64,000 bases of DNA, from the NCBI RefSeq assembly GCF_964355755.1, contig NC_092670.1, positions 34,708,388 through 34,772,387 of the forward strand, in the 5' to 3' direction. Shown in pieces: positions 35,216-64,000 of this stretch; the first letter of the stretch is position 1; each line of letters begins with the position of its first letter. The stretch comes from Antedon mediterranea. Lineage: Eukaryota; Animalia; Echinodermata. The notes below the pieces were generated by a model. The model saw only the letters and a list, made by a program, of their open reading frames with translations, was not told where the DNA came from and made no database searches. The translations under genes were made by a program, and so were the position numbers.

Positions 35216-35670
35216 GTAGGAAATACAATTCTTTCACAAATTCAGACTTTCTACAGTATTTTCATTTAGCAAATAATTTTTTAAACATTTTTAAACTAAA
35301 ATAATGTATAGCATCACATTGTTTACATAAAATAGCAGGAAAATATTATGCTACGTGTATCGGCTTGTTCAACTAAAATTTATTGTTGCTTGTCACAATA
35401 CTCGCTCCGTGATTGAAAGGCATGATGAGATGATGCAAATATTTTATCCGCTTATTAAAATGATCATTATTTTTTCAAGTCCTAAGCATTTGTGTCAACG
35501 GAAAACATCGTAAAAAACTGTATCATATTAAATGTTTACCACAATTCTGCATTTTTTTTTGGGTAGCTAGGAATCAATATAACTTTGAACTATATTACTC
35601 TCTGTATGTCAAGCAAAAGTTTAAATCATAGTTTTACTCCCTGATTTCTTTTTTTTAATATTACAGTATT

Positions 35671-36164
35671 AGGGAGGTTTCGCAACCTTACGATAACGAA
35701 AACGGATACGTCACACATTCTGACACTTTTGAGCTGATCCCCATTTCATATCCGTAAAGCGTATTCGTGTTGACGAATATCACCAGTCATATTCGTAACT
35801 ACAAAACGAGTATAGTTTTTGATCTATTTTGCACATTTTGCATTTGAATCAGGAATGATTCATGATTATAATATAATTATAGATTTATTGAAAGTAATTT
35901 ACTAATGTAATTTACTAAAATGCCAGGTCAATTTTGATAAATAGCAGTTTTTAAAGTCCTCACTCGCTTTGATGTTACGCTAGGCCTAGCAGCCAAGCAA
36001 CACGTACCTGCGCTTCGCTCAAATTTACCGCAGTCATATTTTAGACGGCGCCCTCAATATTTTGTTGCCATGCGAAACAGATTTTTACTGGCTTACATAA
36101 ATGAATACGTGTGCGTGACGTATCCGTTTTCGTTATCGTATTCGTAAGATTGCGAAACCTCTCT
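35671..36164. mobile_element. MITE (PIF/Harbinger-like)
   Basis: Long imperfect TIRs AGGGAGGTTTCGCAACCTTACG..ATAACGAAAACGGATACGTCAC and GTGACGTATCCGTTTTCGTTATCG..CGTAAGATTGCGAAACCTCTCT. Confidence 0.8.
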
Positions 36165-36758
36165 ATTATTTATTTTCAGCAATGTTAGTTTGTAGTTTAG
36201 GTTGTCTTTAAATTTATATTTTTTATATCACAGTTTTATTTTTATGACACTATTATTTTGCAGTAGTATATAGCATACTTTATTCACAACTATTAAGACT
36301 CAAAGTGTCTTTCACACATGTTCTGGCATGTTTCTGCTCAGGTGGCGGCAAATCCAACTGAACATCAATGTTTCGTTTTCACACGGCTACGTGCATATCG
36401 GTAGGTGGATAGCAATGTGGAACGTTGTGAAAACGAAACATTGATGTTTGATTTGCCGTACCAGAACCGTGCTAGGACAGCCGTGAAAGACCCTTAACAT
36501 GTGGTATTTTCCTTGTGCTATCACAATGTCAGTTGTGCAATATTCCCTGTGAGTGACATTGATGCCATAAATATCAGTAAAGAAATTAATGCCATGTTCT
36601 TTGTCAAAGTAATATTGTGATGACCTCATAGTATATTATTTCACTTCTTTCAATAAACTTCAGAACTCTTCAGTGATGTTGTTTTAGAAATTAACTGTTT
36701 CTATATTGAATCATAAAGAAAGAATCGTAATGATCTGAAGTATACGCTGTTTAGATTA

Positions 36759-38091
36759 CAGTCAACTCTCCCAATACCGGACACCCTTGGGCGGGCATAT
36801 ATTTTCCGGTTTTTCGAAAGTCCGGTTTCCTGAAAACATATTTTTAAAGTCATCACGTTGTCACTGAAAATGCTTTGAATCACCGGTCCGAATGCTGCCC
36901 GGTACGGTCTCCTAGCGTAGGGAAGGCCTAGGCTAGGCTATGATTGTGTCAATCTAGTTTTAATTAAATAAATACTGATAGGCCTAGGCTAGGCCTACTT
37001 TATTAATATTAAGCTACAGTAATTCAATTTACCTTTTTTAAAAGTTACATTATTTACTGTACCAATAAAACATGTTACAATAGTAAATTATTGTTTCTCA
37101 ATGTGTTTTTAACGGCAAAAAGGCGTACGTACGTACCTACGTACGTACGGTGAACATAATTTCGGTCTGTTTATTGTTTTTCGTGAGCTAGCTAGCAGCA
37201 GCAGCAGCATGGGTGTGAAGGGCTTTGATTGATGCGCATGTGCAGAGGTGTCATAATCAAATAAAAATGCCCACACCTAGACCACATGTTTTTTAAGCTC
37301 CTTTATTTTGACGTAATTTGATAGCAATGATGAAAATTGATTAGGTAAACGAGCCAAGCAATAATGACACAATAATTAATTGGTAACATTTCAAAGTTTA
37401 TTCAAACTAGTTAAGTCAAGTTCATTCCGTTTACGTTTTGCCATAATGATTTCCAAATTTATAATGATGCACATTTTTAGTGAAACATTCCTTTTTAAAG
37501 TCCTATTGCAATTGTGAATTTAACAATAATTTAAACAAAACAAAGACACAAAGTGGAATGTAAATTGAACTTTATTAAAAAACAATTCATATGCTAAAAA
37601 ACAGGGAGTTGTTAACAACTCCCTGCTAAAAACAATAGACATTAAGACATAGCGCTTCGATGTGAAAAAGCCCACGCAGTTCGATACGCAACAAAGCAAT
37701 TGCCGCCTCGTGGGTTAACAATGAACTGACCTGTCAATCACAGTGTAGCGCTCCATGGCAACATTATTTGATCGTACCGCGAAATGTCGCGCACTTCATG
37801 CATGGTGAGGGTATGGTTAAAAGCTTTTGTACATTGTGAATGTATTGAATCCGAGTCAGCGACGACGATGTTTTCGTAAATATTTGGAGTTTTTTAACTG
37901 TCAGTCCGGTTTTCAGACGCTAATTTTCGTGTTTTGTACTTCATAATTTGTCCGGATTCCGGAATTGGGTATTCCGGTTTTCATGATAAATTACAGTACA
38001 TTTAGAAAAGGGACAAATTGGGCCCTCCAAAAAAGTCCGGTTTTTCGTGAATTCCGGTTTTGGGAGAGTCCGGTATTGGGAGAGTTGACTG
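36759..38091. mobile_element. Non-autonomous Tc1/mariner (pogo/Tigger-like) element
   Basis: Perfect 24-bp TIR CAGTCAACTCTCCCAATACCGGAC, TA on both sides, no transposase ORF. Confidence 0.9.
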
Positions 38092-39005
38092 TATTCATTT
38101 TCTCAACTAAAAACGAAACTAAGTTTATTTCCTTAAAATGTATTATGTATTTTGAAACCACAATAACATAAGAGTTCAATTGATCTGAACTGATTGATCA
38201 TTACATGTTGCAGTACTGTAAAATACATTTTTATTATTTAAGCTAGATTATAAATCTACTAATTATGTATATTTATATTTACTTTTAATAATAATAATAA
38301 TAATAATAATTTATTTTGAAAACGCTTTTTGAACAGCGGTACACATAATAATGATGCATCCTTAAAACAATTAAACATACAATATAAAAATATATGAGTA
38401 TAAAAATAAAGATAGACTAGATTAAAACAGATAATACTCAGATAAAACGGAAGTTCGATAAAACCAAATTAAAAAATAAACTGTAATACTAATACCAATT
38501 AAATGCAACCCACATACATAAGCTTGGATACTAAATTAGCATATCAATTAGCATATCAATTAGCATATCAATTAGTATATGAACAAAGGAATTTACAGTA
38601 TTTATTGCAAGTTGAAATTTTATTTTTTATACAGCACACTCAATGGTAATATTTTGTGTCATTTCCTCATTGAATGAAAATATTTATTAAAATGAACTGA
38701 AGAATTATACAAAGTCACAAAAAGCGATCATGTATAATTCATTTTAAATTTTATACATTTTAAACATTAACATTTTCAATTAAATGATTTATTCTGTTAA
38801 AAGTAACATGATTTTATTTGATTATAATGCTAACATTTGTTAGCAAGATGAAATTAAATTTACTTATCACTAACAATTTTGATTCGTGTATCTGCTCACA
38901 TTACTTGTTTATTTGATAAAGATTATTTCTTTTTCAAATTTTGTAGTATCTACTTGCTTTGCTCTCACTGTAATTTCTGTTAACCTGTTTCTTATCATCT
39001 TTGAT

Positions 39006-40775
39006 TCAATCAATTACATTAAAACTAGAAACGTACATGTCATTATTAAACTTAAGCACAAAATGTTTAGTTTTCTTTTCTTGGTTGCTATATTTCTCGG
39101 TACATAACAATTCCAGCTGGTTGCTTGTTGAAGGTGGATCATCATCTTTAATTTCATAATAGATTTCCTCATCATCCATTTGTTCTACCTTCTTTTTGTT
39201 TGTAGTTGGTTGTGATTTCTCACTTTCTTTAATGTTGTAATATTCTTTTCCTTCCTCTTGCTTGCTTGTAGAAGCTTCTTCATTCACTTCATTGATATTA
39301 TTGTTGCTTTCTTGCTCATTTTCCGTTATCTTTTCTCCCTTCTTTGAAGGTATCTCACTATCTTTAACATTATACATTCTTTCACCTTCTGTTTTATCTA
39401 GTTCCCTTTTTAAGGTTTTGATAGTATCATCATGTTGACTCTGCTTCACAGTTTGTGAATGTACATAGTGTTTTATTTTAAGTGTATACATCAATACTAG
39501 TAAAAGTATCATTAACAGTATCCCAGTTGTAGTTGCAAGTATAATAATAGTTATATCCTTATCATTGTGATTCAACTGTTGATGTGTAGTTGCTGTTGGC
39601 ACAATATCTTTGACTGTGAATTCCATTTCATCAAACCTCTTCTGGACATCAGTACTCACCAAACATGTTACAGTGTAATTACCAGCTGGTAAATTGTTAA
39701 AGCATCTTTCATCATTCTCTTGGTTGTCATCAACGTATGTAATAGGTTCTTCTCCATTCAAACTCCAATTGTAAATTGTCTTATTACCAGATCCACCTTC
39801 TGTGTAGCATTTGAAGCAATTTGCATCCACATGAACTTCTGGTGATTTGTAAAACCTTTTTATTTTCACAATCAATTTAGGAAGAGAAGTAGTTTTAAGT
39901 CTATGATCTTTGACTGTAAATTTCATCTCTTCATATTTTTTCTGTACATCAGTACTCACAAGACACTTGACAGTGTAATTTCCAGCTGGTAAATTGTTAA
40001 AGCATCTTTCATCCTTCTCTTGGTTGTCACCATCCTCAGTAATTTTCTTTCCATTCAATGTCCAATTGTAAATTGTCTTATTACCAGATCCACCTTCTGC
40101 ACAGCACTTGAAGCAATGTGTACTCGCATGCGGTAGTTTAGGTGTTTTATGCAATATTTTTACAATTAATCGAGGGTAAACCTTTAGTATCAATGTGTAG
40201 CACTCGAAAGATACATGTTGGGCGAAACTTGTGAAGCAATAAAAGAATATACCATCTCCAGCTTGGAAACCAGTCAATGTCTGACTAATACTTAAGCTAC
40301 TGCTATTAACATTATATGACTGCATATTGATATATCTTCCTTGGATCCATCCTATTGTTAATTCTTTTGTGTTTACTCGAGTGTATTTCTTGATGCATGT
40401 GATTTTTAATTCTTCATCTTTTTCAATGTTTTTAAAATGTTCACATTCAAGATACATAAACTTTTTAGTTGAGATTTTGGTAACTTCTGCTGAAGGAACC
40501 AAATAATGCTTATTCTCGTCATCTTGACATGCGTATATTCCTACACTTTGTTGTTCATTGAAATATATAAACAGATTACAGTTCACTGTATTATTGTTAT
40601 CAGGATGTTTTCCTTTAAACTGTTTGCTTGATGGTAATACTGCTGGATAGCGCATATATGATGTATCCAAGCAATCATATAGCCACCATAGAACAGCGCC
40701 TTCTACAATGATATTACTGACATTCAAGAAGCAAACCACTGCTATGAAGTTGAGGATAACTTGTGACCTGGTCAT
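39006..40775 (-). CDS. Receptor copy A: type I membrane protein with intronless CDS, Ig-like ectodomain (two copies of the membrane-proximal domain) and Tyr-motif tail, 589 aa
   Basis: Uninterrupted ORF. Signal peptide MTRSQVILNFIAVVCFLNVS; Ig-like motifs NLFIYFNEQQSVGIYAC, LKITC..IGW..GDGIFFYC and 2x FKC..EGGSGN.TIYNW.LNG..AGNYTV.CLVS; TM ITIIILATTTGILLMILLLVLMYTL followed by KIKH; tail motifs MYNV, EYYNI, EEIYYEI. Confidence 0.85.
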   Translation of the reverse strand: MTRSQVILNFIAVVCFLNVSNIIVEGAVLWWLYDCLDTSYMRYPAVLPSSKQFKGKHPDNNNTVNCNLFIYFNEQQSVGIYACQDDENKHYLVPSAEVTKISTKKFMYLECEHFKNIEKDEELKITCIKKYTRVNTKELTIGWIQGRYINMQSYNVNSSSLSISQTLTGFQAGDGIFFYCFTSFAQHVSFECYTLILKVYPRLIVKILHKTPKLPHASTHCFKCCAEGGSGNKTIYNWTLNGKKITEDGDNQEKDERCFNNLPAGNYTVKCLVSTDVQKKYEEMKFTVKDHRLKTTSLPKLIVKIKRFYKSPEVHVDANCFKCYTEGGSGNKTIYNWSLNGEEPITYVDDNQENDERCFNNLPAGNYTVTCLVSTDVQKRFDEMEFTVKDIVPTATTHQQLNHNDKDITIIILATTTGILLMILLLVLMYTLKIKHYVHSQTVKQSQHDDTIKTLKRELDKTEGERMYNVKDSEIPSKKGEKITENEQESNNNINEVNEEASTSKQEEGKEYYNIKESEKSQPTTNKKKVEQMDDEEIYYEIKDDDPPSTSNQLELLCTEKYSNQEKKTKHFVLKFNNDMYVSSFNVID

Positions 40776-42175
40776 TGTAATTTCTTCACCTCTACTAAGA
40801 ATTTTTTCTGACGTTACTTTAGTAAACTGTTGTTTCCATGAATACTAAAACAAATGATTTTGATGCATCTGTAAAGAAAGCACGATATTGAAATTATTAT
40901 TTTCTTTTTAACTGAAAACAAAACAAATTTTTATTTCTGTGTCTACTTCTGTTTTTGACAACAGTCATAACAACGATAATAGTTGTAATTATTATTATAG
41001 TTATTTTTCAAGGTTCATAAGAGCCTACTGAAAGTCTGAAAAGAAAATGTATCTGTAGTACAAGCAATGTGATGAAATCTGCTGTAAACTGTGTCTATGC
41101 AATGAATTGAATATTCTAGACCTGGATAATTAAAATTAAATTAATTGTTAACGTTTTCCGTCTTCCGACATTACGCTTTCCACAATTTGTTTCCATTTTT
41201 TTCTGTTTATGGCAGGATGGTTTGTTATTGTGTTAGTGTCTACTTGTCCTTGTAAGTCTTTCTTTATTTGATTCATCCAGTTATTTCTTGGTCTTCCTAC
41301 ATATTCCAATACATATACCATGTTCACAACTAAGGATATTGAGAATGGAGAGATACGCTGCAGAGTATTTTATAATAAAGTGTATTATGCTATAAGTATA
41401 TTGTATCTCGAGTCGAGTGGCTGAGCAGTTTAGGCAGTTGGTCTCAAAGGTCTGCTATGAATTATGTGCCTGCATGGCACATTGGTTGGCTTTTGTCGAT
41501 ACTGTATTTTTACAGACATGGTCTGAAAACTTACCTACTGGAAGTTGTTAGTTTAATGTACATATACAATATTTGTTATTGACGGTCAATTTCTGACATT
41601 TGGACTGCTTGGTAGGTTTGCTTGCTTCTGGTAGTATAAAGGCTAAAATAAATGAAATTTTATTTGTGAAGTATGTAGTCAGTCTCACTGCATTACAGTA
41701 CAAATGTCCTATATTCATGTACCATTACATACAGTATATGAACACTATTTCGATTAGAAAATCATTATAGAGCGGGTACACCTCTATTCAAGGAACATTA
41801 GGGAAACTTTCATTTGAAGCAAACATGGAAAATGTGTTATAACACAGGCGACCCTTATTTAGGGGACATTTTCCTGGGTCCCAAAAGTGTTCCCTTAGGG
41901 AAGTACTGTAATCTAAAGTAGAGAATAAACTATATATAGAGGGTACATCAAATAATTTTCTAAAAAGCCCCCAGTGAATATCAGGGGAATGCAGTAAATG
42001 GGTTAAATAGATTTGATTAGTTTTCATTAGGATCTTTTCTATTTTCATTCTTTAGTTCTTTTTTCTTTCATAGTTTATTGCACAGTAGTAGTCGTGGTTC
42101 ATTATGCAAATAACAGCAAACAAGATTTTGATACAGAAAAAGAAACAAAAATATTAGGCTAGATAAAATTATCTT

Positions 42176-43345
42176 CTACTTCTGATGTATCAATTGAAAC
42201 GTACATTTTTCACACACAGCTACCCAATTCTTTCGGTAACAATGTTGATCACGCCAAGCACCACCATGGCGCTTAAACAGAGCAGCACAATTATTACCGT
42301 TACTAAGTTTGGGCTGGCCTTGTTGCCAATCTGAAAGATTAATTACGACTTTTAAGGACTAGTAGAAAAGAAATAAAGTCTTAAAATGATCATGTAACTT
42401 TCATTTATTTAGAGAAGTGAGTAACATACTTTTAAGTTTAATAACTTCCCATTGGGCATATACAAAATTGATAAACATGGATTGAAAAAATATTAATTTT
42501 AATTTTTTAATCTGAAAGTGATATTTATTATTCGTATGAAAGCTGTTTCTTCAGATTTTTTAATTTATGAGCAAAATATCAAAAGAACTGAATAAAAGAA
42601 TAAAAACAAACGTACTTTCATAACTTGATGTGTTTAACATCCACTCAAATATGCCATCTCTATCTATATCATCAATGTAGCCAATCCATGAGGCATTTGA
42701 TGTGGAATCTTCAGTGAGTCTCTGAAGTACCCACATGTTTTCACTTTCACTTGAAATTTCAACCAAATTACTTTTCAAACGCTGGCATTTTTGCGACATG
42801 TTTAGCCACGTACCAGAAGTGTTTGTGACCCAGTAGCATTTGGAAAATGAGGCATTGTAGTGCCATCCTGTTGGACAACCTGTAAATAAATTATGATTTT
42901 AATCGACCTTTTTGACAGACTGAAGTTTAAAAAAACTGTTCCGAAGATAATAAATAATAATTGCTTCTTTACATTGTTCTTAGCATCAGTGCCATAATGT
43001 CTTTCACTGGCTAAAGCCAGAGACACCAGAGCTACAGTAAGAGGTCCTTAGAGGCTCTTTCCCCCTGTGTAGCACCACTGCTATTGTATACGATTTGTCC
43101 TTCAGGTCAAAGGTTAAACTTTATTGCATTTATTCGATAATTATCCGATTTGAATTAGATAATTATCGATTAAATTTCTCGAGTTGAATTGGTTAGACCC
43201 CGTTTCCACAGGTATTTTATCGGTTAATTATCAGTTAATTTTATCGGTTAATTTTTGACTGCGGAAAAACAGCCTGTTACTCACCACAGGTAATGTAATA
43301 TGTAACAGCCAAATATGACAGTACTGCAAGTCCTCTCAGTTCCAT
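42176..43345 (-). CDS. Secreted single-domain C-type lectin-like protein (about 159 aa)
   Basis: Coding exons 43285-43345 (signal MELRGLAVLSYLAVTYYITCG), 42616-42879 (CPTGW..KCY..W....KC....SNLVEISSESEN..SWIGY....GIFEW) and 42176-42330 (NWQQGQPK..NCA..GAWRDQHC....VCEK). GT-AG junctions, both phase 1; upstream UTR-exon donor near 43916. Confidence 0.88.
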
Positions 43346-44697: not shown

Positions 44698-45959
44698 CTA
44701 ATACATAAACACTCCTAAATACCAGGTACGCCACATGAGTGTTTCACATCTATATATAAATACTCCTTAATACCAGGTATGCAACTTGAGTGTTTCACAT
44801 CTATACATAAACACTCCTAAATACCAGGTACGCCACATGAGTGTTTCACATCTATATATAAATACTCCTTAATACCAGGTATGCAACTTGAGTGTTTCAC
44901 ATCTATACATAAACACTCCTAAATACCAGGTACGCCACATGAGTGTTTCACATCTATACATAAACACTCCTAAATACCATGTACGCCACATGAGTGTTTC
45001 ACATTAATATATAAACACTCCTAAATACCATGTACGCCACATGAGTGTTTCACATCTATATATAAACACTCCTAAGTACCAGGTACGCCACATGAGTGTT
45101 TCACATCTATACATAAATACTCCTAAATACCAGGTACGCCACATGAGTGTTTCACATCTATATATAAATACTCCTAAATACCAGGTACGCCACATGAGTG
45201 TTTCACATCTATATATAAATACTCCTAAATACCAGGTACGCCACATGAGTGTTTCACATCTATATATAAATACTCCTAAATACCAGGTACGCCACATGAG
45301 TGTTTCACATCTATATATAAACACTCCTAAATACCAGGTACGCCACATGAGTGTTTCACATCTATATATAATACTCCTAAATACCAGGTATGCAACTTGA
45401 GTGTTTCACATCTATATATAAATACTCCTAAATACCAGGTACGCCACATGAGTGTTTCACATCTATATATAAACACTCCTAAGTACCAGGTACGCCACAT
45501 GAGTGTTTCACATCTATACATAAATACTCCTAAATACCAGGTACGCCACATGAGTGTTTCACATCTATATATAAATACTCCTAAATACCAGGTACGCCAC
45601 ATGAGTGTTTCACATCTATATATAAATACTCCTAAATACCAGGTACGCCACATGAGTGTTTCACATCTATACATAAACACTCCTAAATACCAGGTACGCC
45701 ACATGAGTGTTTCACATCTATATATAAATACTCCTAAATACCAGGTATGCAACTTGAGTGTTTCACATCTATATATAAATACTCCTAAATACCAGGTACG
45801 CCACATGAGTGGTTCACATCTATATATAAATACTCCTAAATACCAGGTATGCAACTTGAGTGTTTCACATCTATACATAAATACTCCTTAATACCAGGTA
45901 TGCAACTTGAGGTGTTTCATATCTATACATAAAAACTCCTTAATACCAGGTATGCAACT
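44698..45959. repeat. 51-bp minisatellite, about 25 copies, two interleaved unit variants
   Basis: Unit CTATATATAAATACTCCTAAATACCAGGTA(CGCCACA/TGCAACT)TGAGTGTTTCACAT. Confidence 0.97.
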
Positions 45960-47889: not shown

Positions 47890-48590
47890 AGCTTTATCAT
47901 CTATTTCATCTTCAAGTACTGCTTCTGGTTGTCTGTTGTTGCTTGTTGATGATCTCTCATTGTCTTCATCTTTGAATTCAATACTTTATTCATTTATTTT
48001 ACTATTAGAAATCTTGACATCTTCCATTTCATCAGTGTTATACATCGCATTATACATGATCTGTGAAGTTGTTTGAGAATCTGCTTGTCTGTTGTTGCTT
48101 GTTGATGGTCTCTCATTTTCTTCATCTGTGAAATCAACACTGTATTCATTTATTTTAATATTAGAAATCTTGACATCTTCCATTTCATCAGTGTTATACA
48201 TTGCACACATGATCTGTGAAGTTGTTTGAGAATCTGCTTGTCTGTTGTTGCTTGTTGATGGTTTCTCATTGTCTTCATCTGTCAATTCAATACTGTATTC
48301 ATTTATTTTAATGTTAGAAATCTTGACATCTTCCATTTCATCAGTGTTATATATAGCATTATACATGATGTGTGAAGTTGTTTGAGAATCTGCTTGTCTG
48401 TTGTTGCTTGTTGATGGTTTCTCATTGTCTTCATCTGTCAATTCAATACTGTATTCATTTATTTTAATGTTAGAAATCTTGACATCTTCCATTTCATCAG
48501 TGTTATATATAGCATTATACATGATGTGTGAAGTTGTTTGAGAATCTGCTTGTCTGTTGTTACTTGTTGATGGTCTCTCATTGTCTTGGA
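47890..48590 (-). repeat. 156-bp coding tandem repeat in the tail of copy B (4 units plus a partial fifth past the stop)
   Basis: TGTGAAGTTGTTTGAGAATCTGC recurs at 48527, 48371, 48215 and 48062. Confidence 0.95.
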
Positions 48591-49785
48591 TCTCATAATA
48601 GATCACTTCACTGTCTGTCTGTTGGTTTCTTGAGATTTGTCGAATTGTCACATTGTGTCTTTGTTGTATTGCATTGATCTCTGGAATTTCAATGTCACTT
48701 TCTCTATCACTGTCAGTGTCACTATTTCTATGATAATATATGTTTTGTGGTTTGTTGTGATGCTTTCTTTTTTGTTGGTATAGCAACATAATGACAAGAA
48801 ACCCAAATATGGTTGTCAATGTTGCCAATAGTATATTTGTTATCTCAATTGTTGGTGTTGCATATGGCGTAGTTGTTAGGGATGTGCAGGGATGAACAAA
48901 AAAATCTATTTCATCAGACCTGTTCTGTACATCAGTACTCACCAGACACTTGAGAGTGTAATTACCTGCTGGCAAATTGTTAAAGCATCTTTCATCATTC
49001 TCCTGGTTGTCACCATCTTCTGTAAGTTCTTCTCCATTTAAAGTCCAATTGTAAATTGTACTAGTACCAGATCCACCTTCTGTGTGGCATTTAAAACAAT
49101 GGACTTCTGGTGTTTCCATATGAACTTCCTGTGTTTTGTACTGTCTTCTTATTTCCACAATTAATCGAGGATGAACAGTCAGTATCAATGTGTAGCACTG
49201 ATAGGTTGTGTATGTGGTGAAATCATCTATGGAACAGCAAAAGAATACACCATTTCCAGCTTGGAAACCAGTCAAAGTTAGGTTAAAAATTAACATACTA
49301 CTTTGTAAATCATCATATAACTCCATATTTACATATTGTCCTTGGATCCATCCCATTGTTATTGTTAATGGGTTAAATGTATATTTTAAAAAGCATGTGG
49401 CTTGTATTTCCTCGTCTTCAATGATATTTTCAAAGTTTTTACACCTAAAAGTAGTACGCCCAAAATCTAAATCTGCAATCCAATTTGCTTCAGCAGAAAC
49501 CACGTAGTGTTTATTCTTATCATCTTGGCATGTGTATAAACCTGCATTTTGTTGTACATTAAAATATATAAACAGATTACAGTTCACTGTATTATTCTTG
49601 TCAGGAAATTTTCCATCAATTTGACCTCTGAACTGTTTATTTGATGGTAGTATTGCTAGATGATAAATATGTGATGTATCATTACTTGTATAATTCCAAT
49701 ATATGAAACCTTCTACAGTTGTATTACTGACATCATGGACAAAAATCACCGCTACAAGGATGAGAACAAGTGATGACCTGGCCAT
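47986..49785 (-). CDS. Receptor copy B: Ig-like type I receptor with intronless CDS and four about 52-aa Tyr-containing tail repeats, 599 aa
   Basis: Intact ORF paralogous to A. TM ITNILLATLTTIFGFLVIMLLY then QQKRK; motifs VIYYEI, IMYNAI x2, IMYNAM, EYSIEL. 5'UTR acceptor TTTCTGTTTCAG ends at 49979. Confidence 0.85.
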   Translation of the reverse strand: MARSSLVLILVAVIFVHDVSNTTVEGFIYWNYTSNDTSHIYHLAILPSNKQFRGQIDGKFPDKNNTVNCNLFIYFNVQQNAGLYTCQDDKNKHYVVSAEANWIADLDFGRTTFRCKNFENIIEDEEIQATCFLKYTFNPLTITMGWIQGQYVNMELYDDLQSSMLIFNLTLTGFQAGNGVFFCCSIDDFTTYTTYQCYTLILTVHPRLIVEIRRQYKTQEVHMETPEVHCFKCHTEGGSGTSTIYNWTLNGEELTEDGDNQENDERCFNNLPAGNYTLKCLVSTDVQNRSDEIDFFVHPCTSLTTTPYATPTIEITNILLATLTTIFGFLVIMLLYQQKRKHHNKPQNIYYHRNSDTDSDRESDIEIPEINAIQQRHNVTIRQISRNQQTDSEVIYYEIQDNERPSTSNNRQADSQTTSHIMYNAIYNTDEMEDVKISNIKINEYSIELTDEDNEKPSTSNNRQADSQTTSHIMYNAIYNTDEMEDVKISNIKINEYSIELTDEDNEKPSTSNNRQADSQTTSQIMCAMYNTDEMEDVKISNIKINEYSVDFTDEENERPSTSNNRQADSQTTSQIMYNAMYNTDEMEDVKISNSKINE

Positions 49786-50689
49786 TATACAATGCCTTCA
49801 CCTCTTTCAATCTTTTGATTTTAGTAAACCTTTTCTATTCTTGATATAATAATACATCAATTATAGAATGCCTTCACCTCTTTTAAGTAAATGTCTCCTG
49901 ATCTTGTGTGAATATTTCCAGTTACCAATCTTGTAATACACAATAAAATGAACCTTACAGAAATAAATTGTGATGATTCTGAAACAGAAACAAACTCTAG
50001 TGCTTGCTTGTGGTTGGTAACAAATTATTATCTTATTTCTTGATCTTGTATTAAATATAGATACAACGTATAATCTTGTTATCTGTGATCAAAAGTCGCT
50101 TAAAAATAATCGTTATCGTAATATTCTAATGTTTCATAAAATATAGAAACAAAAAGTACTAGATGACAGTTTTAAAGCAAATTTTACATTTAATATTTAT
50201 AATATGAATTATTTGTTTGATATTAACAATGGTGACATGATAAAAACATTAAATCTTGAAAAATACAAATCAAAACATTAATTTTTAAATCATAATTGAT
50301 CTCAGCATGAATCATTATAAATAAAGATCAAATCATTAAATCATGATAATAAAAGGTCACAGCATTGGATAATGATAATAGAGATCAAATCATTAAATCA
50401 TGATAATAAAGATCACAGCATTAAATCATGATAATAAAAGATCACTGCATTTAATAATGATAAAGATCACAGCATTAAATCATGATAATAAAGATCAAAA
50501 CATTAAATCATGAAAAATATTGATGAAAACATTAAATCATGATAATAAAAAATAACAGCATTGAATCATGATAAAGATCACAGCATTAAATCATGATAAT
50601 AAAGATCAAAACATTAAAGCATGAAAAATATTGATGAAAACATTAAATCATGATAATAAAGATCACAGCATTAAAAATCATGATAATAA

Positions 50690-51608
50690 CGCCCGTATTC
50701 TTAAACCGGACTTTAGTCGTAGTTCGAAGTTCGACTTGAAAAAGTCGTAGTTCGAGCTATTACTTCAAATTCGATTAAAAAAAAGTTTGCAGTTCGACTT
50801 AATGAAGTCGAGCTTTTAGTCGAGTTGCACACGTCTGGGTAACAAAGGCTATACATTGGCCAATGACAAGAGAGTATTTGAGGAGCAGACGAAATTTTGC
50901 GCATTGATATCACTTTCCATTTTCTTACAACACTTTTTACGCATCAGGACTATATACATGAAAAATAATTTTAATCGTTAATTATTAGAACAAGATCAGT
51001 ATTAATTTAACAGTGAAGTATATTTGATTAACAACAAACAAAATCTTCAAACTATATTTAGGAACCATGGCGGTACGGTAACTTTTATATTTTCTAGGCC
51101 CCCAACAAAGTATGATCGCGACAAACCACGCACTTCATAGCGTGACAAGAAAGCGCTAGGCCCCCTAAACATTCCATCACGTGGTGAATTTCCGCATCTG
51201 CCATTGTCGCTAATGGCGTGACGTAGTTCAAGTTGGACTTGCGCGAAGAAAATAATGTAATTTGTATACGGTTGTAAATAAAGATGATTTTCATTATTAT
51301 AACTTATACCAATGTATATTTAATTAAGCTAATATAAAAATAGATATTTCATTCTTCCAATATCTGGCCAATATAACAACTCAATGACTGTTACGTTTTT
51401 TATAAACATCGTTTAAAAACCATTTAGTCGACCATTTAGCCTGCTCCCTCCAGGACTAAAAAAATTGATCAAAATCCGTCTCGATTTAGTCGAGGTTGGC
51501 CTGATTTAGTCGGTGATTTAGTTGAAGTTCGGTTTATGAATTAAAATGACGTCACTTTTTTAGTTTTAGCTCGAACTACGACTAAAGTCCGGTTTAAGAA
51601 TACGGGCG
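50690..51608. mobile_element. PIF/Harbinger-like MITE in the 5'UTR intron of copy B
   Basis: Perfect 38-bp TIR CGCCCGTATTCTTAAACCGGACTTTAGTCGTAGTTCGA, TAA TSD (50687-50689 and 51609-51611), absent from the paralogous intron of copy C. Confidence 0.9.
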
Positions 51609-52362
51609 TAAGAATACGGGCGTAAAAGATCACAACATTGATTAATGATAATAAAGATAACAGCATTAAATCATTATAGTAAAATGTCACAGCATTGAAT
51701 AATGATAATAAAGATCACAGCATTATAAATCATGATAAAAAAAATCACAGCATTGAATATCATGATCATGACACTGAATCATGATAAATATAGATTGAAC
51801 GAAGCATTGTCAAGACCACTCTCAGTTAAACCTTCATAAAGGTGTAGCCCATCATTGTCGCCCATAAATGATCCATTATTGTTTGGTTTACAGTATAGAT
51901 ATTGATACTGATCGATACAACTGAAGAGTATACACCAAAAGCTAATTAATGTGTTTGTTTAGATTGTTTGATATTCTACTCGCCAGAAAGTGGTTTTACA
52001 GCACTTCCTTGAAGTGCTGTTGTCTTTTTTTTATTATGTTGTCAATAGGGACTTTACGAAACACGACCGTTAGGGGATGACGACAAATATCCTGTGTTTG
52101 CTAGAGAGCGTAAAATCATATACAGTCAACATAGCCATTTTATTAGTTACACACCTTTGCGCGAAAGACGACGACCAACAGTATCTCTCTCCCTCCCCTG
52201 TGTCGCGGCGTGGGACCCTTGCTTGGCTCTGGTGGAACAGCATAGGCCTAGCCTTCCTAGCTAGGAGCCTCCCATTCAAACGCCGTGCAGAATGTATTGC
52301 TTTTAACACAGCCATTTTAACCTAATAAAGCGTTATATTGTTAAACAATTAAATTAGAAGTT

Positions 52363-53742
52363 TTTTTGTTTATTGTATTCATAAATGATATGGTTGATAA
52401 TATCAAATCTAATATTAGTTTATATGCAGATGATACTTCGTTATATGATATTTGTACAGATCGTAATATTTCAGAACAAAAATTAAATGGTGATCTTAAT
52501 GTCATTTATAATTGGGCAAAAAAATGGAAAGTAACATTCAATGCTAACAAAACGAAAGCTATACTGTTTACACGTAAACATTTAGATAACTATGTTAGTT
52601 TAAATTTCAATAATGTAAATCTACAATTTGTAAATGATCATAGGCATCTTGGTGTAATGCTTAATGCAAAACTCAAGTGGGATTCCCATATCCAATCTGT
52701 AATTAACAAAGCGTCTTTATCTTTAAATATGCTACGTCGTGTCAAACATATTCTACCTCGACAGGCTCTCTGTCACATTTACATATCACACGTTAGACCA
52801 TTAATGGAATATGCAGCTCCTGTTTGGTGTAATATCCCAGATAAATTAAGTGATGAACTAGAAAATATCCAGATTTCTGCAGGTAGAATATGTACTGGTG
52901 CGTGGAAACATACAAGTCATAATGCATTAAGACAAGAATTAGGCTGGTTATCATTGGAAAAACGTAGACAATTTCTTAACCTAATACTGTTTTTTAAAAT
53001 TATTCATAAGTTAACACCGGTGTATCTTTACTCCTTATTTAATTTTTCTGACAATATTGAAGTTTATAACTTGCGTAACATCCGAAATATAATAATTCCA
53101 TTTTGTAAGACCACATCATATCGTTTATCTTTTGTCCCATCTATTATAACACATTGGAATGAGTTAAATAATGAAATAAAAAATTCCTCATTTCTTGTTG
53201 AGTTTAAAAAATTGCTACTGAAATCCAATTTGTTGGAAACAAAAAAACGTTCTTATTATGAAACGGGTGATAAGAAGATTAACCAAATTCACACTAGAAT
53301 CCGACTTGGTTTCAGCTGTCTCAATTCGCATTTATTCTTACATGGACTTCGGGACAATCCAAATTGTACTTGTGGCTTTAATGTTGAGAATCCGCTTCAT
53401 TTCTTATGTTACTGCCCTAATTATAATACACAAAGAGATATTCTACTTGTAAGCGCTAACTCAATTATTGAGGATATCTTAGCCAAGGATTTTTCTTTAA
53501 CATTTAATTTTACATTTTTAAGTGAAATTTTTATTTTTGGTTCCGATCTTCTTTCGAATTGTGAAAATGCTTTATTATTTTATTATGTACAACAATTTCT
53601 TGTTAATTCTGGAAGATTTAATTGATGTTTCTGTTAGTTGTTTTAAAATGTTGTATTTGTTAATCTGAGGCGCCTTGAAGCTAAGATGGTTCCATCTTGT
53701 AAGGCGCCTCTGTGTAATATACTGAATAAAAAAAAAATAAAA
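52363..53742 (+). mobile_element. 5'-truncated non-LTR retrotransposon (CR1/Jockey-group-like RT C-terminus), recent insertion
   Basis: Open 419-aa ORF with FIVFINDM, LYADDT, HRHLGV and a C-terminal Cys/His knuckle (CTCG..E...HFL..C). 3' hairpin at 53668-53710, poly(A) tail, and a 12-bp TSD AAATTAGAAGTT at 52351-52362 and 53743-53754. Confidence 0.93.
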
Positions 53743-53884
53743 AAATTAGAAGTTAAAATATTATTTAGAGTTTTGAAATTTCCACGTTTAAGTGTAATTT
53801 GAACTGTATATTTAAGGTTTAGTACATTATTTCTATTCGTTCTCTGAAAATGGAAACTTTATCGTCTTTAAAAAGTTAAGACTT

Positions 53885-54768: not shown

Positions 54769-56341
54769 TCATACTTCCTCCAGATGTTCATCTTCCTTTT
54801 GCTGTCTGCTTGTTAAGGGTTCATTTTTTAATTCAATACTGTGTTTATTTATTTTAATATTAGAAATCTTGACATCTTCCATTTCATCAGTGTTATACAT
54901 CGCATTATACATGATGTGTGAAGTTGTTTGAGAATCTGCTTGTCTGTTGTTGCTTGTTGATGGTCTCTCATTGTCTTCATCTGTGAAATCAACACTGTAT
55001 TCATTTATTTTACTATTACAAATCTTGACATCTTCCATTTCATCAGTGTTATATACCGCATTATACATGATCTGTGAAGTTTTGAGAACCTGCTTATCTG
55101 TTGTTGCTTGTGGATGGTCTCTCATTGTCTTTGATCTCATAATAGATCACTTCACTGTCTGTCTGTTGGTTTCTAGAGGTTTGTCCAATTGTCACATGGT
55201 GTCTTTGTTGTACACCATTGACCTCTGGAATCTCACTGTCGCTGTCACTGATGTCATTATTTCTATGATAATATACGTTTTGTGGTTTGTTGTGATGCTT
55301 TCTTTTTTGCAGGTAAAGCAATAGAATTACCAGAAACCCAAATAAGGTTGTCGATGTTGCCAATAGTCTAGTTTTTAAGCCAATTGTTGATGTTGTTAAG
55401 CCAGGGACTCCTTCATTTGCTACTAAAATGGATGTGCAGGGTTGAACAAAAAAATATATTTCATCAGACGTGTTCTGTACATCAGTACTCACCAGACACT
55501 TCACACTGTAATTTCCAGCTGGTAATTTCTCAAAGCATCTTTCATCATTCTCCTGGTTGTCATCATCCTCTGTAATAAGTTCTTCACCATTTAAAGTCCA
55601 ATTGTAAATTGTAGTATTACCAGATCCACCTTCTGTGTGGCATTTAAAACAATGGACTTCTAGTGTTTCCATATAATTAACCTCTGGTGTTTTGTACCGT
55701 CTTCTTATCTCCACAATTAATCTAGGATGAACAGTCAGTATCCATGTGTAGCACCGATATTTGTTGAAATCATATATCCAACAAAAAAATAATACACCAT
55801 CTCCAGCTTGGAAACCAGTCAAAGTTAGGTTAAAAATGAACATACTACTTTGTATAAAATCATCATATAACTCCATATTTACATATTGTCCTTGGATCCA
55901 TCCCATTGTTACTCTTAATTCGTTAAATCTATGTTTTAAAGAGCATGTGACTTGTATTTCCTTGTCTTCAATGATGTTTTTAAAGTTACACCTAATACTA
56001 GTAGATAAAATATCTAAAACTGGGTACCAGTATACTTTAGCAGAAACCGCCACCACATAGTGTTTATCCTCATCATCTTGACATGTGTATAATCCTTGAT
56101 TTTGTTGTACATTAAAATATATTAGCAGATTACAGTTCACTGTATTATTCTTTACAGGAAATTTTCCATCAATTTGACCTTTGAGCTGTTTACTTGAAGG
56201 TAGTATTGCTAGATGATGAATATGTGATCTAACCTCAGTTTCATCCCAATTCCAATATATAAAGCTCTTTACAGTTGTGTTACTGACATCGTGGAGAAAA
56301 ATCACTGCTACAAAGATGAGAATAAGTGATGACCTGGCCAT
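54769..56341 (-). pseudogene. Receptor copy C: ectodomain and TM intact (ORF 55094-56341, 415 aa), tail cut by a nonsense codon and a frameshift; pseudogene or short-tailed variant
   Basis: CAA>TAA at 55094-55096 relative to copy B, then a 2-nt loss at about 55083. Two further tail repeats continue in another frame to 54769. Confidence 0.75.
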
Positions 56342-56719: not shown

Positions 56720-57290
56720 ATAAAAACATTAAATCACGAAAAATACAAATCAAAACATTAATTTTAAATCATAATAATGATCTCAGCATGAATCATCATA
56801 AATAAAGATCAAATCATTAAATCATAATAATAAAAGATCACAGCATTGGATAATGATAATAAAGATCAAATCATTAAATCATGATAGTAAAAGATCACTG
56901 CATTAAATCATGATAATAAAGATCACAACATTAAATCATGATAATAAAGATCAAAACATTAAATCATGATAAAGATTAAAACATTAAATCATGATAATAA
57001 AGATTAAAACATTAAATCATAATAATAAAGAACAAAACATTAAATCATGATAAAGATTAAAACATTAAATCATGATAATAAAGATCAAAACATTAAATCA
57101 TGATAAAGATTAAAACATTAAATCATGATAATAAAGATTAAAACATTAAATCATGATAATAAAGATTAAAACATTAAATCATGATAATAGGGATCAAAAC
57201 ATTAAATTATGATAATAAAGATCACAGCATTATAAAACATGATAATAAAAAATCACAGCATTGAATATCATGATCATGACACTGAATCAT
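56720..57290. repeat. Degenerate 25-30 bp AT-rich tandem repeat (AAATCATGATAATAAAGATCACAGCATT-like) in the receptor 5'UTR intron; paralogue at 50290-50688 and 51625-51790
   Basis: Read directly; copy number differs between B and C. Confidence 0.85.
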
Positions 57291-57314
57291 GAAAAATATA
57301 ATTATATTTCTATG

Positions 57315-57875
57315 CTATGTTAGTGACGATATCGTGTAAATTGTAAGTTGGAAACCAGTCAAAGTTAGGTTAAAAATTAACATACTACTTTGTAAATCAT
57401 CATATAACTCCATATTTACATATTGTCCTTGGATCCATCCCATTGTTACTGTTAATGTGTTAAATCTATGTTTTAAAAAGCATGTGACTTGTATTTCCTT
57501 GTCTTCAATGATGTTTTTAAAGTTGTTACACCTAATACTAGTACTCAAAATATCTATATCTGCGATAGACCCTGCTTCAGCAGAAACCACATAGTGTTTA
57601 TCCTCATCATCTTGACATGTGTATAATCCTGCATTTTGTTGTACATTAAAATATATAAACAGATTACAGTTCACTGTATTGTTCTTGTCAGGAAATTTTC
57701 CATCAATTTGACCTTTGAACTGTTTACTGGAAGGTAGTATTGCTAGATGATGAATATGTGATCTAACCCCATTTTCATTCCAATTCCAATATATGATGCC
57801 TTTTACAGTTGTGTTACTGACATCATGGAGAAAAATCACTGCTACAAAGATGAGAATAAGTGATGACCTGGCCAT
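57315..57875 (-). pseudogene. Receptor copy D: 3'-truncated fragment (signal peptide + N-terminal Ig-like region, no TM)
   Basis: Homology to B/C stops at LTGFQ (about 57348) and runs into the 5'UTR intron of copy C. Upstream homology ends about 10 nt before the ATG, at 57885. Confidence 0.8.
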
Positions 57876-58786
57876 TATGCAGTACAGTGGGACAGCCAGT
57901 CGACAAATCGTTTCAAATTTCGACTCGGAGAGGGCGCCCTACTTTTCTAATTTAGTTCAAAATTGCTAAATTTTAGGGTGTTGGAAAAACACAATATTTG
58001 TAAATTTAGCTGATTATCGGAAAAATATTGTTAGTGAAATAAATTCATAAATGGTTTTAATATATATACATGTAAAATTAAATGTATTTGAACAAAACGA
58101 TAATCTGTAATTTAACGGCAAAATCAACCAATGTCTTTTTTCCGAAATTGCACCCTAGAAAATCATTAAAATAAAACATTTAGAAAAATTGAACAGTCCT
58201 GAATTTAAAATCCCTGTTAGAAAAATTAATAATCTACAGAATACGATATTAAGATACAAAATTCGGTGGTTGGGATGCAGCTCCGATTATTCAAACTAAA
58301 GGTACCACTATTTGTTCCATCGAAAACTAGCGAAACCGCCATTTTGTAAACACATCGTCATCGTGTTTATGAATTTATTTATAGCGAACGATATACGCGA
58401 TGTTTATAATTGTCCGCGTATAAGAATTCATATAAATAAATACATTCCAATACAACGTATATATTACTTGTTTATTTATCTCAGTATACATTTTAGTTGA
58501 GGAATATTTATCATAACTATTATAATAGCTTTTATACGAGTCCGAGGCCTAGCCCTATTAGCGAGCGATTGTTCCAGGGGCGGAAAGTCACTTAGTGACG
58601 TTGTGATCGGGCGCGTCGGGCCTAGCTAATATTAATAATATATGACCTGAAATAAGCGGCTAACAAGAACTGTTATATACTTGCTTACAATTGTTTTGTT
58701 ATTGATGAACAAACAAGCAATTAGATTGAATAACAAATTGTTTATTCATTTTTTTTGGGTAAAAACATGTACAAACTAGTACTGTA

Positions 58787-60224
58787 TCTATATATAAATT
58801 TACGTAAGGGCAAAAATCGGTAAATCGAGCGTTATTTCTAGAATGTTTACTCGATCGTATATAAAGTTGGTTAGAATCTCGGTACTGATTTTAACCACCT
58901 GATGTAACCCTGTTTACTAATTAAATTGAGTTAGATAATTAGTTATTGACAATTAAAACGAATTTAGGTTCAACGATTTGCCCCAAATAGGGGTGTTTTT
59001 CGATCGTGGTATACACTGTCTAATGGATGTCCGTCTTGAAAAATACCCGAAGACAATAATACGAGGATGCTTCGCATTTTCCTATCTCCTCCTACGATAA
59101 TTGTTTTTAATGGCTGAAAACCGGTTGAACAGCTCGAGTACAGCATCATAATGTTGAAGACAGGCCGATTTTCTTTAAAAAATACTATTTTGATAGATTT
59201 AATATACGTTTATATAAATGTATTGATTTGCGATGAATGGAACATTCCAATCTCTGTTACACAAGTGTCTATTCCCTCAGGCGTCGTAAAGGCAAGTACT
59301 GTATACTCATAACAGAAATTCGATCCATTTTTTCCCAATCTGTTCTGCAGAGGTTGGATATAATTTTTTTTAAACAGATAATGAGCTAGCGTTTTCAGTC
59401 GCCGTATATTATGTACAAATCTTTATTATTGCATTTAAACCACCCACATCATCACCCTTTCCTCACTGGCATGAGTAGCGTTGTAAACCAAGAGGATAAG
59501 CCTATACGGTGCATCACATGCCCTAAACGCAGAACAACTTTGGTGGGTAGGGTAGGAACCAACTTAATTATGAATTGGCTCTAAGAAACAATTGAAAACC
59601 ATTGGGCCTACTAATTAAGTTGAGTTAGATAATTTAATATTTATTGACGATTAAATCGAATTTATGATTTTCCCCGAATAGAGGTGGTTTTCACAAATTG
59701 TTTAACATTATATATAAACATACGTCATCATAGTGTATCGTTACATGTACTGTACTATTTCAATCGACTACGACGGTGATAGTTTCAACAAAGTATTACA
59801 TCATCGCAATGTTTTACTGTGTTTAGTGGTATATTATTTGTAAAACATGAAAACAATTAATATTTCGTTACAAAATAAAGAATATTTTTAAAATTGTTCC
59901 TCTTTGCACCCATCCTCTTCCCCATCCCTCAACCATAATGTTACATACAAAACACAAAATATGTTTGCTTAAATCTGACTTTTAAAACAATTGGTCTCAT
60001 TTTGTGACAAGTTTCTCTTTCGGAAGTAATTCCCAGGGTGCTAATTTTAGTTGAGTACATAAATCACAGTGTCTTTTTATTCGTTCCTGTAAACGACATG
60101 TATTATTGTCCTGCATTATTGTACATTTGAAATCGCCATTTTTTTTACGCTGAAATCATGTATTCGAGAACCATCTGTGGGCACGACCTAGATGGTACGC
60201 GAGCAAAGCGAGCGTGCCATCTAG
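58787..60224 (+). mobile_element. Non-autonomous Helitron-like element
   Basis: Begins A|TCTATATATA and ends with hairpin CTAGATGGTACGC..GCGTGCCATCTAG|T; no TIR or TSD. A second copy of its first about 83 bp lies at 60416-60498. Confidence 0.65.
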
Positions 60225-60523
60225 TAATATAAATTAATAGTAATATTAAACTAATACAGTATTAATAAAATATAAAATAGGCCTAACATACAATAAATAT
60301 TCAATTTTTAAGGTCTACCACATGACAATAACATATTTACAGGGTATAGTGTAGTAGGTTTGCATTCAACATAAATATTTGTATTGTAATTCATCTAAAT
60401 CCTCTGCAACATACATCTATATATAAATTTACGTAAGGGCAAAATTCGGTAAATCGCGCGTTACTTCTAGAATGTTTACTCGATGGTATATAAAGTTGAT
60501 CAGATCACCAGGCTAGGCCGGCC

Positions 60524-61955
60524 TTCACCATTTAAAGTCCAATTGTAAATTGTAGTATTACCAGATCCACCTTCGGTGTGGCATTTAAAACAATGGACTT
60601 CTAGTGTTTCCATATGAACCTCTGGTGTTACTGTTTTGTAAAGTCTTTTTATTTCCACAATTAATCGAGGATGAACAGTCAGTATCAATGTGTAGCACTG
60701 ATAGGTTATGTATGTGGTGAAATCACCTATAGAACAACAAATTACGTTGTTTTTAGAACTAACCAAAAGAACTTTGACAAAAACCAGTTTAAAATAAAAA
60801 TGAATAATGTGTTATTACATAGAAAAGAAAATGTGACATTTCTAGGTGTAATTTTAAACGAAAATCTTAACTGGAAACATCACATACAGCTTATTAGGAA
60901 AAAAATGTCTAGGGCAATTGGTATACTTTTAAAAGTAAGAGAATTCTTTCCTCATAAAGTCCGTATTAGTCTTTATAACACCTTAGTATTACCTCACCTT
61001 CTGTATGGTAACTTAATATGGGGAAATACATACAAGAGCATGTTAGAAGCAATACTAAAACTCCAAAAGAGATCTGTAAAATGCATTACCTTCTCTAAAT
61101 CCAGACAAGCCTCAGAGCCACTGTTTAAGAAACTAAAAATATTAAACGTTTATGATATTTACAAAGTAAACGTCATAGGATTTATGGCAAACGTAAAATT
61201 CAATGAATTACCACATCACATTTTAAATATTTTTAATTACTGTGACAGTATTAGGCCTACTCATAACCTCAGAACAGAAACTGAATTCGAAATTCCCTTC
61301 ACAAGACTAACTTGCAAAAAAACGAAGCTACACTGCTTTTTTATGCAGGATCCCTGTTTTCAGTTGTACTGTAATTATGATGTACTGTAAATGATGACTA
61401 AATAAATGTGGAATAAATGAAATAAATGAAAAGAATACACCATCTCCAGCTTGGAAACCAGTCAAAGTTAGGTTAAAAATTAACATACTACTTTGTAAAT
61501 CATCATATAACTCCATATTTACATATTGCCCTTGAATCCATCCCATTGTTATTGTTAATGTGTTAAATGTATATTGTAAATCTGTTGTGCATGTGACTTG
61601 TATTTCTTTGTCTTCAATGATGTTTTCAAAGTTTTTACACCCCAAAATCATCTGCGATCGAAATAATTGCTTCGGCAGATCTAACCACATAGTGTTTATC
61701 CTCGTCATCTTGACATGTGTATAATCCTACACTTTGTTGTACATTAAAATATATAAACAGATTACAGTTCACTGTATTATTCTTGTCAGGAAATTTGAAC
61801 TGTTTACTTGATGGTAGTATTGCTAGATGATGAATATGTGATGTAACCCAATTTTCATTCCAAATCCACATTATAACGCCTTCTACGGTTGTGTTACTGA
61901 CATCATGGAGGAAAATCACTGCTACAAGGATGAGAAAAAGTGATGACCTGGTCAT
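60524..61955 (-). pseudogene. Receptor copy E: frameshifted, LINE-interrupted and 3'-truncated
   Basis: Three pieces: 61635-61955, about 61430-61640 and 60524-60741. A 14-nt deletion at about 61640 relative to B shifts the frame, a LINE occupies 60742-61429, and homology ends at NWTLNGE (60524). Confidence 0.85.
60742..61429 (+). mobile_element. 5'-truncated LINE (CR1/L2-group RT C-terminal region) inserted in receptor copy E
   Basis: ORF segment with TFLGVILNENLNWKHHI, LYNTLVLPHLLYGNLIWG, LQKRSVK and SEPLFKKLKIL. The 3' end is short AATAAATG repeats; the flanks rejoin the receptor sequence GVFF|CCSI. Confidence 0.9.
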
Positions 61956-62844
61956 TATGTAATGCCTTCACCTCAAGTAAATGTCTCCTGATCCTGTGTG
62001 TGATTTTGAGTATTTCTTATCTGTTGCCGATCTTGTAATACAAAATAAACTGAATATTTTATAGAAATATATTGTGATGATTCTGAAACAGAAACTCTAG
62101 TGCTTGTTTGTGGTTGTTCACAAATTATTATCTTATTTCTTGATCTTATATGATTCTTTTTTAAATGTATTTAATCTATTTTGTCATCTGTAAGTGTAAT
62201 CGAAGGTTTTTTTTTGATGATTTTAATCTGCTATATATAGAATTATACATTTATTATAATTGGAAACAAGAAGTACCTATGCCTTTCCTTCAATATTAAA
62301 CTAAGAGCATTTTCATAATTTCATATTTCATAAATATTTGAGTTGTGTTGGTAAGCTGATGGTATTATAACGAATAATGTTTTGGCTGGAATCTACATGT
62401 TGTTCCCAAATGCTTATGGCACAGAATCTGACCCTCCATATAGAATCTAAGAGCTGATGATCACTTTCTATCGAACCCTTAAAGAGGTGGTCCATGGCCC
62501 AAGTAACGATCTGAAATTACATATACATAGTCTGCTTTATCATGTTTGTAATTTAACAAGGCCATACATGGCTGCAGTCGTGTGCTCAAGTTAGTGTTTA
62601 CCGACCGACCGTCCAACCAACTGACCGACATAGTGAGCTGTAGAGTCACCTAATTGTCAAACTTGTGATGGTTACTACTGAATGGGCAAAATTAACTGAA
62701 ATTAAGTAAAATACCCAAACACCAATCAATTGGTTTAGATATTGATGTTTATTAATATTACCCATTATTAATTTTTTATAAATACAACTAAAGAGTATTT
62801 AGTTTAAAATTCAAATCTAATTATTTTATTTCTTCTGAATGCAG

Positions 62845-63145
62845 TGTTTGATATTCTGCTCACCGGAAGTGGGTTGGCAACACTCCCTTGAAGTAGTTGT
62901 CTTTGCCTTTGATAGCTCAACTATAGCTAATTCCTAGAACAGGAAAATGTGGTTGTTTTTGTTGTTGCACACAATATATTACTGTAAATCAAGTTGCTAG
63001 TTAGCACTGTACACTGTACAATAAAATAATCCAGAAAAGCATGTGTATAGGTAGTATAAATAAATTCATTTGTGGTAGAAAAAGTTAAGAAGAAACAATT
63101 TAATATGATTGATGCACAAATAATGTGGTGTTTTGCATAATTCCT
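62845..63145 (-). promoter_or_regulatory. Putative promoter and non-coding exon 1 of receptor copy E
   Basis: Homologous to 51965-52027 plus 54301-54500 upstream of copy B. Minus-strand donor CG|GTGAGC at 62863; TGTGGT at 62948, 63071 and 63124; CCGGAAGT at 62863-62870. Confidence 0.55.
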
Positions 63146-64000
63146 AATGCTATATCTAATGTTGTCACCGTCTCTAAACCCATTGTTGTTGTTCTTGTCA
63201 CAGCCGCCAGTAATAATATACTAATAACATTACTTGAAAACAGGTCGCTGGAACACTGACCATGTTTCTTTGATAGTGCATGGCAGGTTCTTGTTTCTTG
63301 TGATGTTTTTTCTTAAGTAGGTGTAGCAACATAATTATATGTTATAATTAAATAATGTTTTCAAAGTTACACACATCACATGTAGCCCTTCAATATATTG
63401 ACAGTTGACGATTCATTATATTATTTTTTTTATTAAGCGCTGTTTACATAGCGCTTTACACTTGCAAAATGGTACAAACAACATCAAACTAAAGTTGAAT
63501 CTAGGTGGTGAGAACAAAATTAATTCAGTTTTGGCATAATTCAATTTTAACTTTAATGCATCCAGGAGCGGACATCGTTGACACATTTATTTGCCAATAG
63601 ATAACCTGAAATCAGCGTAAAGATGAAACAATACACCACCATTCTTTAAAATATTTGGGATTGGTTTTGTTTTAGGAAAACATATGGTAGCAATTTTAAT
63701 AAATGGAAACATGTATGACAACTCTTTATATTTACAGCATATTTCAAATAATGGGAAAATTACAATTCACAAAAGACAAAAAATCTATAATGTCTATTTA
63801 CAAGTGGAGAGGGGAATTTTTGTTTTTTTATTTTTTTAAATTAAAGCCTTTTAATAATATGAGCCTAAAGTAAGGAGAAAATATGGTGGTATATTCAGAA
63901 TTCTGACTGAAAGTCATTTTGATTATATAATGAAAACTTATCTTTATCAACATCAGAATTAATTTTGGCAGAAATTGTCCACTTTATTATCAACATTTTT

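Follow-up and report, generated by a model that had tools for sequence, protein, structure and literature searches.

A minus-strand array of intact and decaying receptor genes probably nested in a giant intron of the feather-star XPB gene

Does the gene for XPB (ERCC3) in Antedon mediterranea, a feather star, hold a cluster of receptor and lectin genes inside a single intron, or does the gene break off where that cluster begins? The window, that is, the whole stretch of DNA analysed here, covers 64,000 nucleotides of contig NC_092670.1 (RefSeq assembly GCF_964355755.1, positions 34,708,388 to 34,772,387 of the forward strand), and all coordinates below count from its first letter. A sequence-only reading of the window had placed the cluster, antisense, in a giant intron of XPB. 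The XPB coding exons 1–15 (24894–35215, plus strand) start with an ATG at 24894, and all 15 are intact, giving an open frame of 611 aa that ends in NTIFISK at 35215. A GT donor follows from 35216, the intron starting GTAGGA. The 14 measured introns are all GT-AG and range from 140 to 2141 bp, which bears out both the intact upstream exons and the intron range of 0.1–2.2 kb given in that reading.

Near-perfect minisatellites are present in intron 2 (25349–25605, 16-bp unit) and intron 8 (30726–31089, 12-bp unit). Head to head with XPB, on the minus strand, lies a multi-exon gene (approximately 16900–23860) whose start is separated from the XPB ATG by about 1 kb and which looks NOM1-like from its motifs; the one exon scanned had no Pfam match. 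A gene for a large low-complexity protein has exons between 1693 and 10361 on the plus strand, and three of its ORFs were scanned without a Pfam match.

No exon encoding the XPB C terminus was found between the donor and 64000. A tblastn comparison of six XPB C termini with the whole window, both strands included, gave a best E of 1.4 (P0004) among the matches listed, whereas upstream XPB exons of 23–24 aa were recovered at E 3e-8 to 4e-10; the 9-aa exon 1 reached only E 3.5. The longest exact peptide shared by the window and the 169-aa XPB tail was 5 residues, compared with 4–7 for 200 shuffled tails. An acceptor followed by V-G-D codons (AG|GTNGGNGAY) is absent from both strands of the window, and a degenerate DNSFDL pattern gave 4 matches, all mismatched, against 5.6 expected by chance. 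The next exon had been named as something that might map before 39 kb; these searches found it neither there nor anywhere else in the window. The helicase motif expected after exon 15 is likewise absent, as claimed, but its sequence in this animal is VGDNSF and not the VGDTSF that had been assumed. We also considered a tail split into micro-exons within the window and rejected it: exons of fewer than approximately 10 codons are individually possible, 169 residues made up of them are not. No Rfam family was found in 24–64 kb.

Complete models of the gene place the missing part further downstream. The 780-aa RefSeq feather-star XPB (XP_071942531.1, here P0004), the nearest relative of exon 13 and followed in that respect by Anneissia, is identical to the window model in 611 of 611 residues and then continues for 169 more, starting VGDNSFDLPE; its domains are Helicase_C_3, ResIII and ERCC3_RAD25_C (E 5e-126). 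Its sole cluster mate, P0121, is a 784-aa XPB isoform with a 4-aa insertion in the tail, shows the same full identity to the window across 611 aa, and is encoded on one and the same contig. RefSeq models are co-linear on a single strand, so the 3′ XPB exons should lie beyond 64000 if P0004 represents this locus. The stretch 35216–64000 (plus strand) is thus likely XPB intron 15, of at least 28,785 bp, with its acceptor outside the window. That intron 15 is such a giant intron and holds the receptor/lectin cluster is probable, given the complete, identical RefSeq model and an adjacency of exon 15 and receptor that is common to a second organism. Of the nesting first proposed, the host exons on the 5′ side are observed, and searches over the whole window found no XPB exon among the nested genes; its 3′ side and the long splice are inferred from P0004 and P0121. 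Introns average 2.7 kb in another feather star (PMC13079724, in part), so 28.8 kb is large for these animals. In Anneissia, XPB isoform X1 is full length, and isoform X2 (P0005, 656 aa) stops a little beyond the exon on the far side of this intron and has a short divergent tail.

Six nested genes, five receptor copies and one lectin, lie on the strand opposite to XPB, as had been described, and a further receptor remnant adds to them. The receptor family is intronless, the whole ORF being contained in one exon. By ORF, hydropathy and domain scan, G1 (39006–40775) is an intact single-exon ORF of 589 aa; by ORF and repeat analysis, G3 (47986–49785) encodes 599 aa and has its stop inside the last tail repeat. 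In G4 (54790–56341, 415 aa) a stop at 55094 and a frameshift shorten the tail, G5 (57348–57875) is a fragment with the N-terminal 176 aa only, and G6 (60524–61955) is a pseudogene with a frameshift, an insertion of about 690 bp (60742–61428) and a 3′ truncation. The remnant (62845–63335, also minus strand) consists of a post-transmembrane stretch and 3′ flank, with 43 bp at 81% identity to G3 and 224 bp at 72% to the G4 flank, and the array may extend past the window. DNA identity is 80–91% among G3–G6 and about 71% for G1. The picture of a family both expanding and decaying is confirmed by intact G1 and G3 next to the cut G4, the broken G5 and G6, and the remnant. A 156-bp (52-aa) coding repeat, present in 4.3 copies in G3 (47924–48587) and 1.9 in G4 (54833–55131), lengthens the receptor tail and multiplies its tyrosine motifs. 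Upstream of G3 and G4 lies a 28-bp-based tandem repeat (50240–50690, 51620–51800 and 56720–57300), which is broken up by an element (50689–51609) whose inverted ends are 54 nt long; this repeat, where G5 ends, is a possible recombination site.

The remaining nested gene encodes a C-type lectin (42205–42879, minus strand), with lectin-domain exons at 42616–42879 and 42205–42330 and flanking exons that are not resolved; it matches Lectin_C at E 1e-6 (29.7 bits, cut-off 22.6) and matches the Antedon protein P0123 at 54%. The intron further contains a MITE-like element with terminal inverted repeats and very high contig depth (35667–36168), a DNA-transposon-like element with 29-nt inverted ends (36754–38096), a 51-bp minisatellite of 24.5 copies (44701–45952) and a truncated LINE in sense to XPB (52345–53745, plus strand), which retains the reverse transcriptase end (a sub-threshold RVT_1 match, E 6.5e-6) and carries AATAAA with a tail rich in A.

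Contigs from 6 of 16 sequencing runs were compared with the locus; none of the runs is catalogued as RNA, and X12 and X13 are called RNA-like from their spliced contigs. Over 35020–35665, no loose end at the donor was seen among the best 20 of 29 matches, and X2 contigs tile 35027–35665 without differences. Organism B (run X9) is approximately 3% diverged from the window. There, one contig (X9 record 24) spans 35072–35664 and, judging from its depth value, 36408 as well, and a second (record 25) links 36426–36756 to 38599–39695, inside G1. The segments skipped in X9 contigs coincide with elements bearing inverted ends: the MITE-like element is apparently missing in organism B, and record 25 skips the DNA-transposon-like one. 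From these two records, exon 15 and the G1 stop would be approximately 1.6 kb apart in organism B without the inserts. Record 25 has 197 unmatched letters against 194 bp of window between the two inserts, which leaves little room for an exon 16. Exon 15 and G1 are thus adjacent in two organisms.

X13 record 17 (2895 nt) is spliced: it matches exons 11, 13 and 14 and leaves a 120-nt gap that corresponds to exon 12. Its 905 nt past exon 14 could accommodate exon 15 and 170 codons plus a UTR of 298 nt, although the same arithmetic also works without exon 15. X12 record 10 has 380 nt past exon 13. Exon 15 is matched in neither of the two RNA-like runs (X12, X13), whereas both DNA-like runs X2 and X3 match it. 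A spliced contig of full-length size was found; the exon 15–16 junction, for which the proposal had called for RNA spliced from donor 35215, was not seen, and the blank over exon 15 is unexplained. Contig depth is even, at 60–62 over XPB and 50–67 over the cluster in X1 and at 150–172 and 146–198 in X9, a weak hint that both are present as one copy. The X1 contigs listed show 0 differences in three records within XPB (31150–34580) and 21 in four records within G1 and the lectin gene (38920–43091), a pattern that may indicate higher polymorphism in the cluster; four amino-acid-changing X1 differences bunch at G1 codons 210–217.

Could the window instead hold a duplicate of only the 5′ part of XPB, with the complete gene and its ordinary introns elsewhere and the cluster simply downstream of the copy? 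In favour of such a duplicate, the 3′ exons were not located and the RNA-like contigs do not match exon 15. All 15 exons are intact, however, RefSeq holds a single XPB cluster whose two isoforms come from one contig and equal the window over all 611 residues, organism B has the same adjacency of exon 15 and receptor, and the even depth, for the little it weighs, points the same way, so we regard a 5′-only duplicate as improbable. Slightly more improbable still is that a misassembly or a private rearrangement brought the cluster beside exon 15 or inflated the distance between them. The stretch from 35.7 to 38.6 kb is indeed dense in repeats, and in organism A no single record crosses it; against this stand the X2 contigs that tile the donor region without differences and receptor copies that are 9–29% apart in DNA, too diverged for false duplication. 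The X9 contigs, from another organism, argue against misassembly up to 39.7 kb, the limit of bridging in organism B, and no contig bridges 39.7 to 64 kb.

A true cluster nested in an XPB intron hence remains by far the most probable reading. XPB would be completed by exons past 64000, with the at least 28.8 kb that follow exon 15, minus-strand array included, forming a single intron. The founder of the receptor family and the lectin gene were likely already located in intron 15 when the two sampled organisms separated; the receptor copies would afterwards have multiplied by tandem duplication, transposon insertion together with duplication would have enlarged the intron, and several receptor copies would subsequently have decayed. 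The common antisense orientation would most simply have been inherited from the founder.

That orientation had also been credited with shielding XPB from the splice and polyadenylation signals of the nested genes, a claim that finds no support. A version of it is compatible with real nesting, namely that selection keeps the copies antisense since those in sense would terminate the XPB transcript or cause its mis-splicing, and two observations speak for it: the three receptor ORFs have eight AATAAA motifs on the strand that encodes them and a single one on that of XPB, and same-strand nested genes are able to interfere with their hosts in human cells (PMC3192792, in part). Over the whole intron, however, the motif counts are about equal or lean towards the XPB strand, with AATAAA at 72 on that strand and 67 on the other (shuffles 43 and 47), ATTAAA at 78 and 48, GTAAGT at 4 and 2, and distinct acceptor-like sites at 2 and 2. 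An acceptor-like excess on the XPB strand (11 versus 2) was discarded as a product of overlapping counts. The LINE with its A-rich tail sits in sense to XPB, and because five of the six units are tandem copies, the units amount to at most two independent origins, for which a single orientation arises by chance in 1 of 4 cases. Mammalian host and nested pairs show no more than a slight antisense bias (PMC11694760). Selection for antisense copies is therefore doubtful, and inheritance from the founder is the simpler account.

What the receptors are is a separate matter. A hydropathy scan of G1, G3 and G4, in place of a dedicated predictor, gives each a signal peptide and one transmembrane segment, and the layout of G1 is a hydrophobic N terminus, an N-terminal beta region, two membrane-proximal Ig-like domains, the transmembrane segment and a tail with tyrosines. 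The ectodomain modelled from 7 sequences is all-beta at pLDDT 71, and the fold from a single sequence is poor (pLDDT 44). With this model, the top Foldseek matches are Ig proteins at E 7.5e-5 and yet a TM-score of 0.23, and the best hit of the VIA structure search is a generic match (Z 8.2, rmsd 2.4, 94 aligned); the structure matches overall are generic beta-sandwiches with TM-scores of at most 0.31. The Atlas score is 0.92 to C2-set. Neither an Ig domain match in Pfam nor a sequence match in PDB was obtained, and the ectodomain is accordingly called Ig-like as a prediction from the model. The ITIM consensus is [ILVS]xYxx[ILV]; this motif, short enough for chance occurrence, is found in the tails of G3 (Y396, Y423, Y475) and G4 (Y400), where the tyrosine motifs read VxYxxI/IxYxxI, and Y512 and Y539 in the G1 tail lack an ITIM residue at -2. 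Between G3 and G4, dN/dS is 1.05 over residues 27–205, 0.38 in the proximal domain and 0.39 in the tail, and in pairs with G1 it is 0.5. From these ratios the outer part appears relaxed or diversifying, with positive selection not demonstrated.

Searching by words for homologs of the G3 ectodomain returned 0 of 2074 candidates, and a profile search returned 11 proteins, with clear relatives at 33–44% in P0124 and P0125 (both Antedon) and P0129 (a fragment) and weak matches otherwise; one of the two Antedon relatives is on the same chromosome, the other on another. G1, G3 and G4 are all three missing from the protein collection searched, and with intact 590–600-aa receptor genes absent from it, the present count of crinoid receptors may be too low. 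A metagenome scan with the receptor alignment gave 53 pattern matches, of which none was confirmed, and a scan with the XPB exon-15 pattern gave none. Tentatively, these could be feather-star-specific intronless Ig-like receptors with inhibitory tyrosine motifs that diversify their outer domain inside an XPB intron while copy number and intron length vary from animal to animal, making the cluster a concealed, polymorphic locus for crinoid immunity or self-recognition, which we think possible though unlikely. If the family is immune and polymorphic, it would provide a candidate locus for recognition in the living echinoderm class that branched off earliest. The unannotated receptor family, rather than the nesting, is in our opinion the more interesting part and the lead worth pursuing.

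CD22/Siglec-like proteins and invertebrate allorecognition receptors are Ig-superfamily receptors with tyrosine-motif tails. G3 and G4 resemble these receptors in their predicted all-beta ectodomain with Ig-like matches, single transmembrane segment and VxYxxI/IxYxxI tails, but differ from them in having a single-exon ORF, a generic beta-sandwich (TM-score ≤0.31) and no Pfam Ig or PDB sequence match.

As architecture, arrays of paralogs that sit in one large intron of a conserved host are already known, with close precedents in insects, and the present locus is one more such array, its host here being a core transcription and repair factor (TFIIH subunit); we found no report of a feather-star XPB nested locus in the literature, supplements aside. 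In D. melanogaster, 12 GMC oxidoreductase genes lie in an 83.2-kb intron of flotillin-2 (Flo-2), which likewise combines tandem paralogs, one large intron of a conserved gene and the opposite strand; that cluster, however, has been kept across four insect orders in a flotillin-2 host, whereas the receptor array is young, decaying and known from Antedon records only, in the TFIIH subunit XPB (PMC1891103, in part). The insect TipE/Teh cluster similarly places paralogs in a late intron, the last, of a single-copy, widely conserved gene (CG18675, host span about 20–100 kb), but as a stable orthologue set of known function, in contrast to the birth and decay seen here (PMC3240667, in part). In mammals, about 12–17% of genes are hosts, these are broadly expressed, and an earlier human survey cited in the same source put nested genes at 63% antisense and 41% single-exon (PMC11694760, in part). 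Mammalian nested genes, as here, occupy the largest intron of the host, but their hosts mostly carry fewer than four of them and the nesting there favours 5′ introns (PMC11694760, in part), whereas XPB would carry at least six in a late intron.
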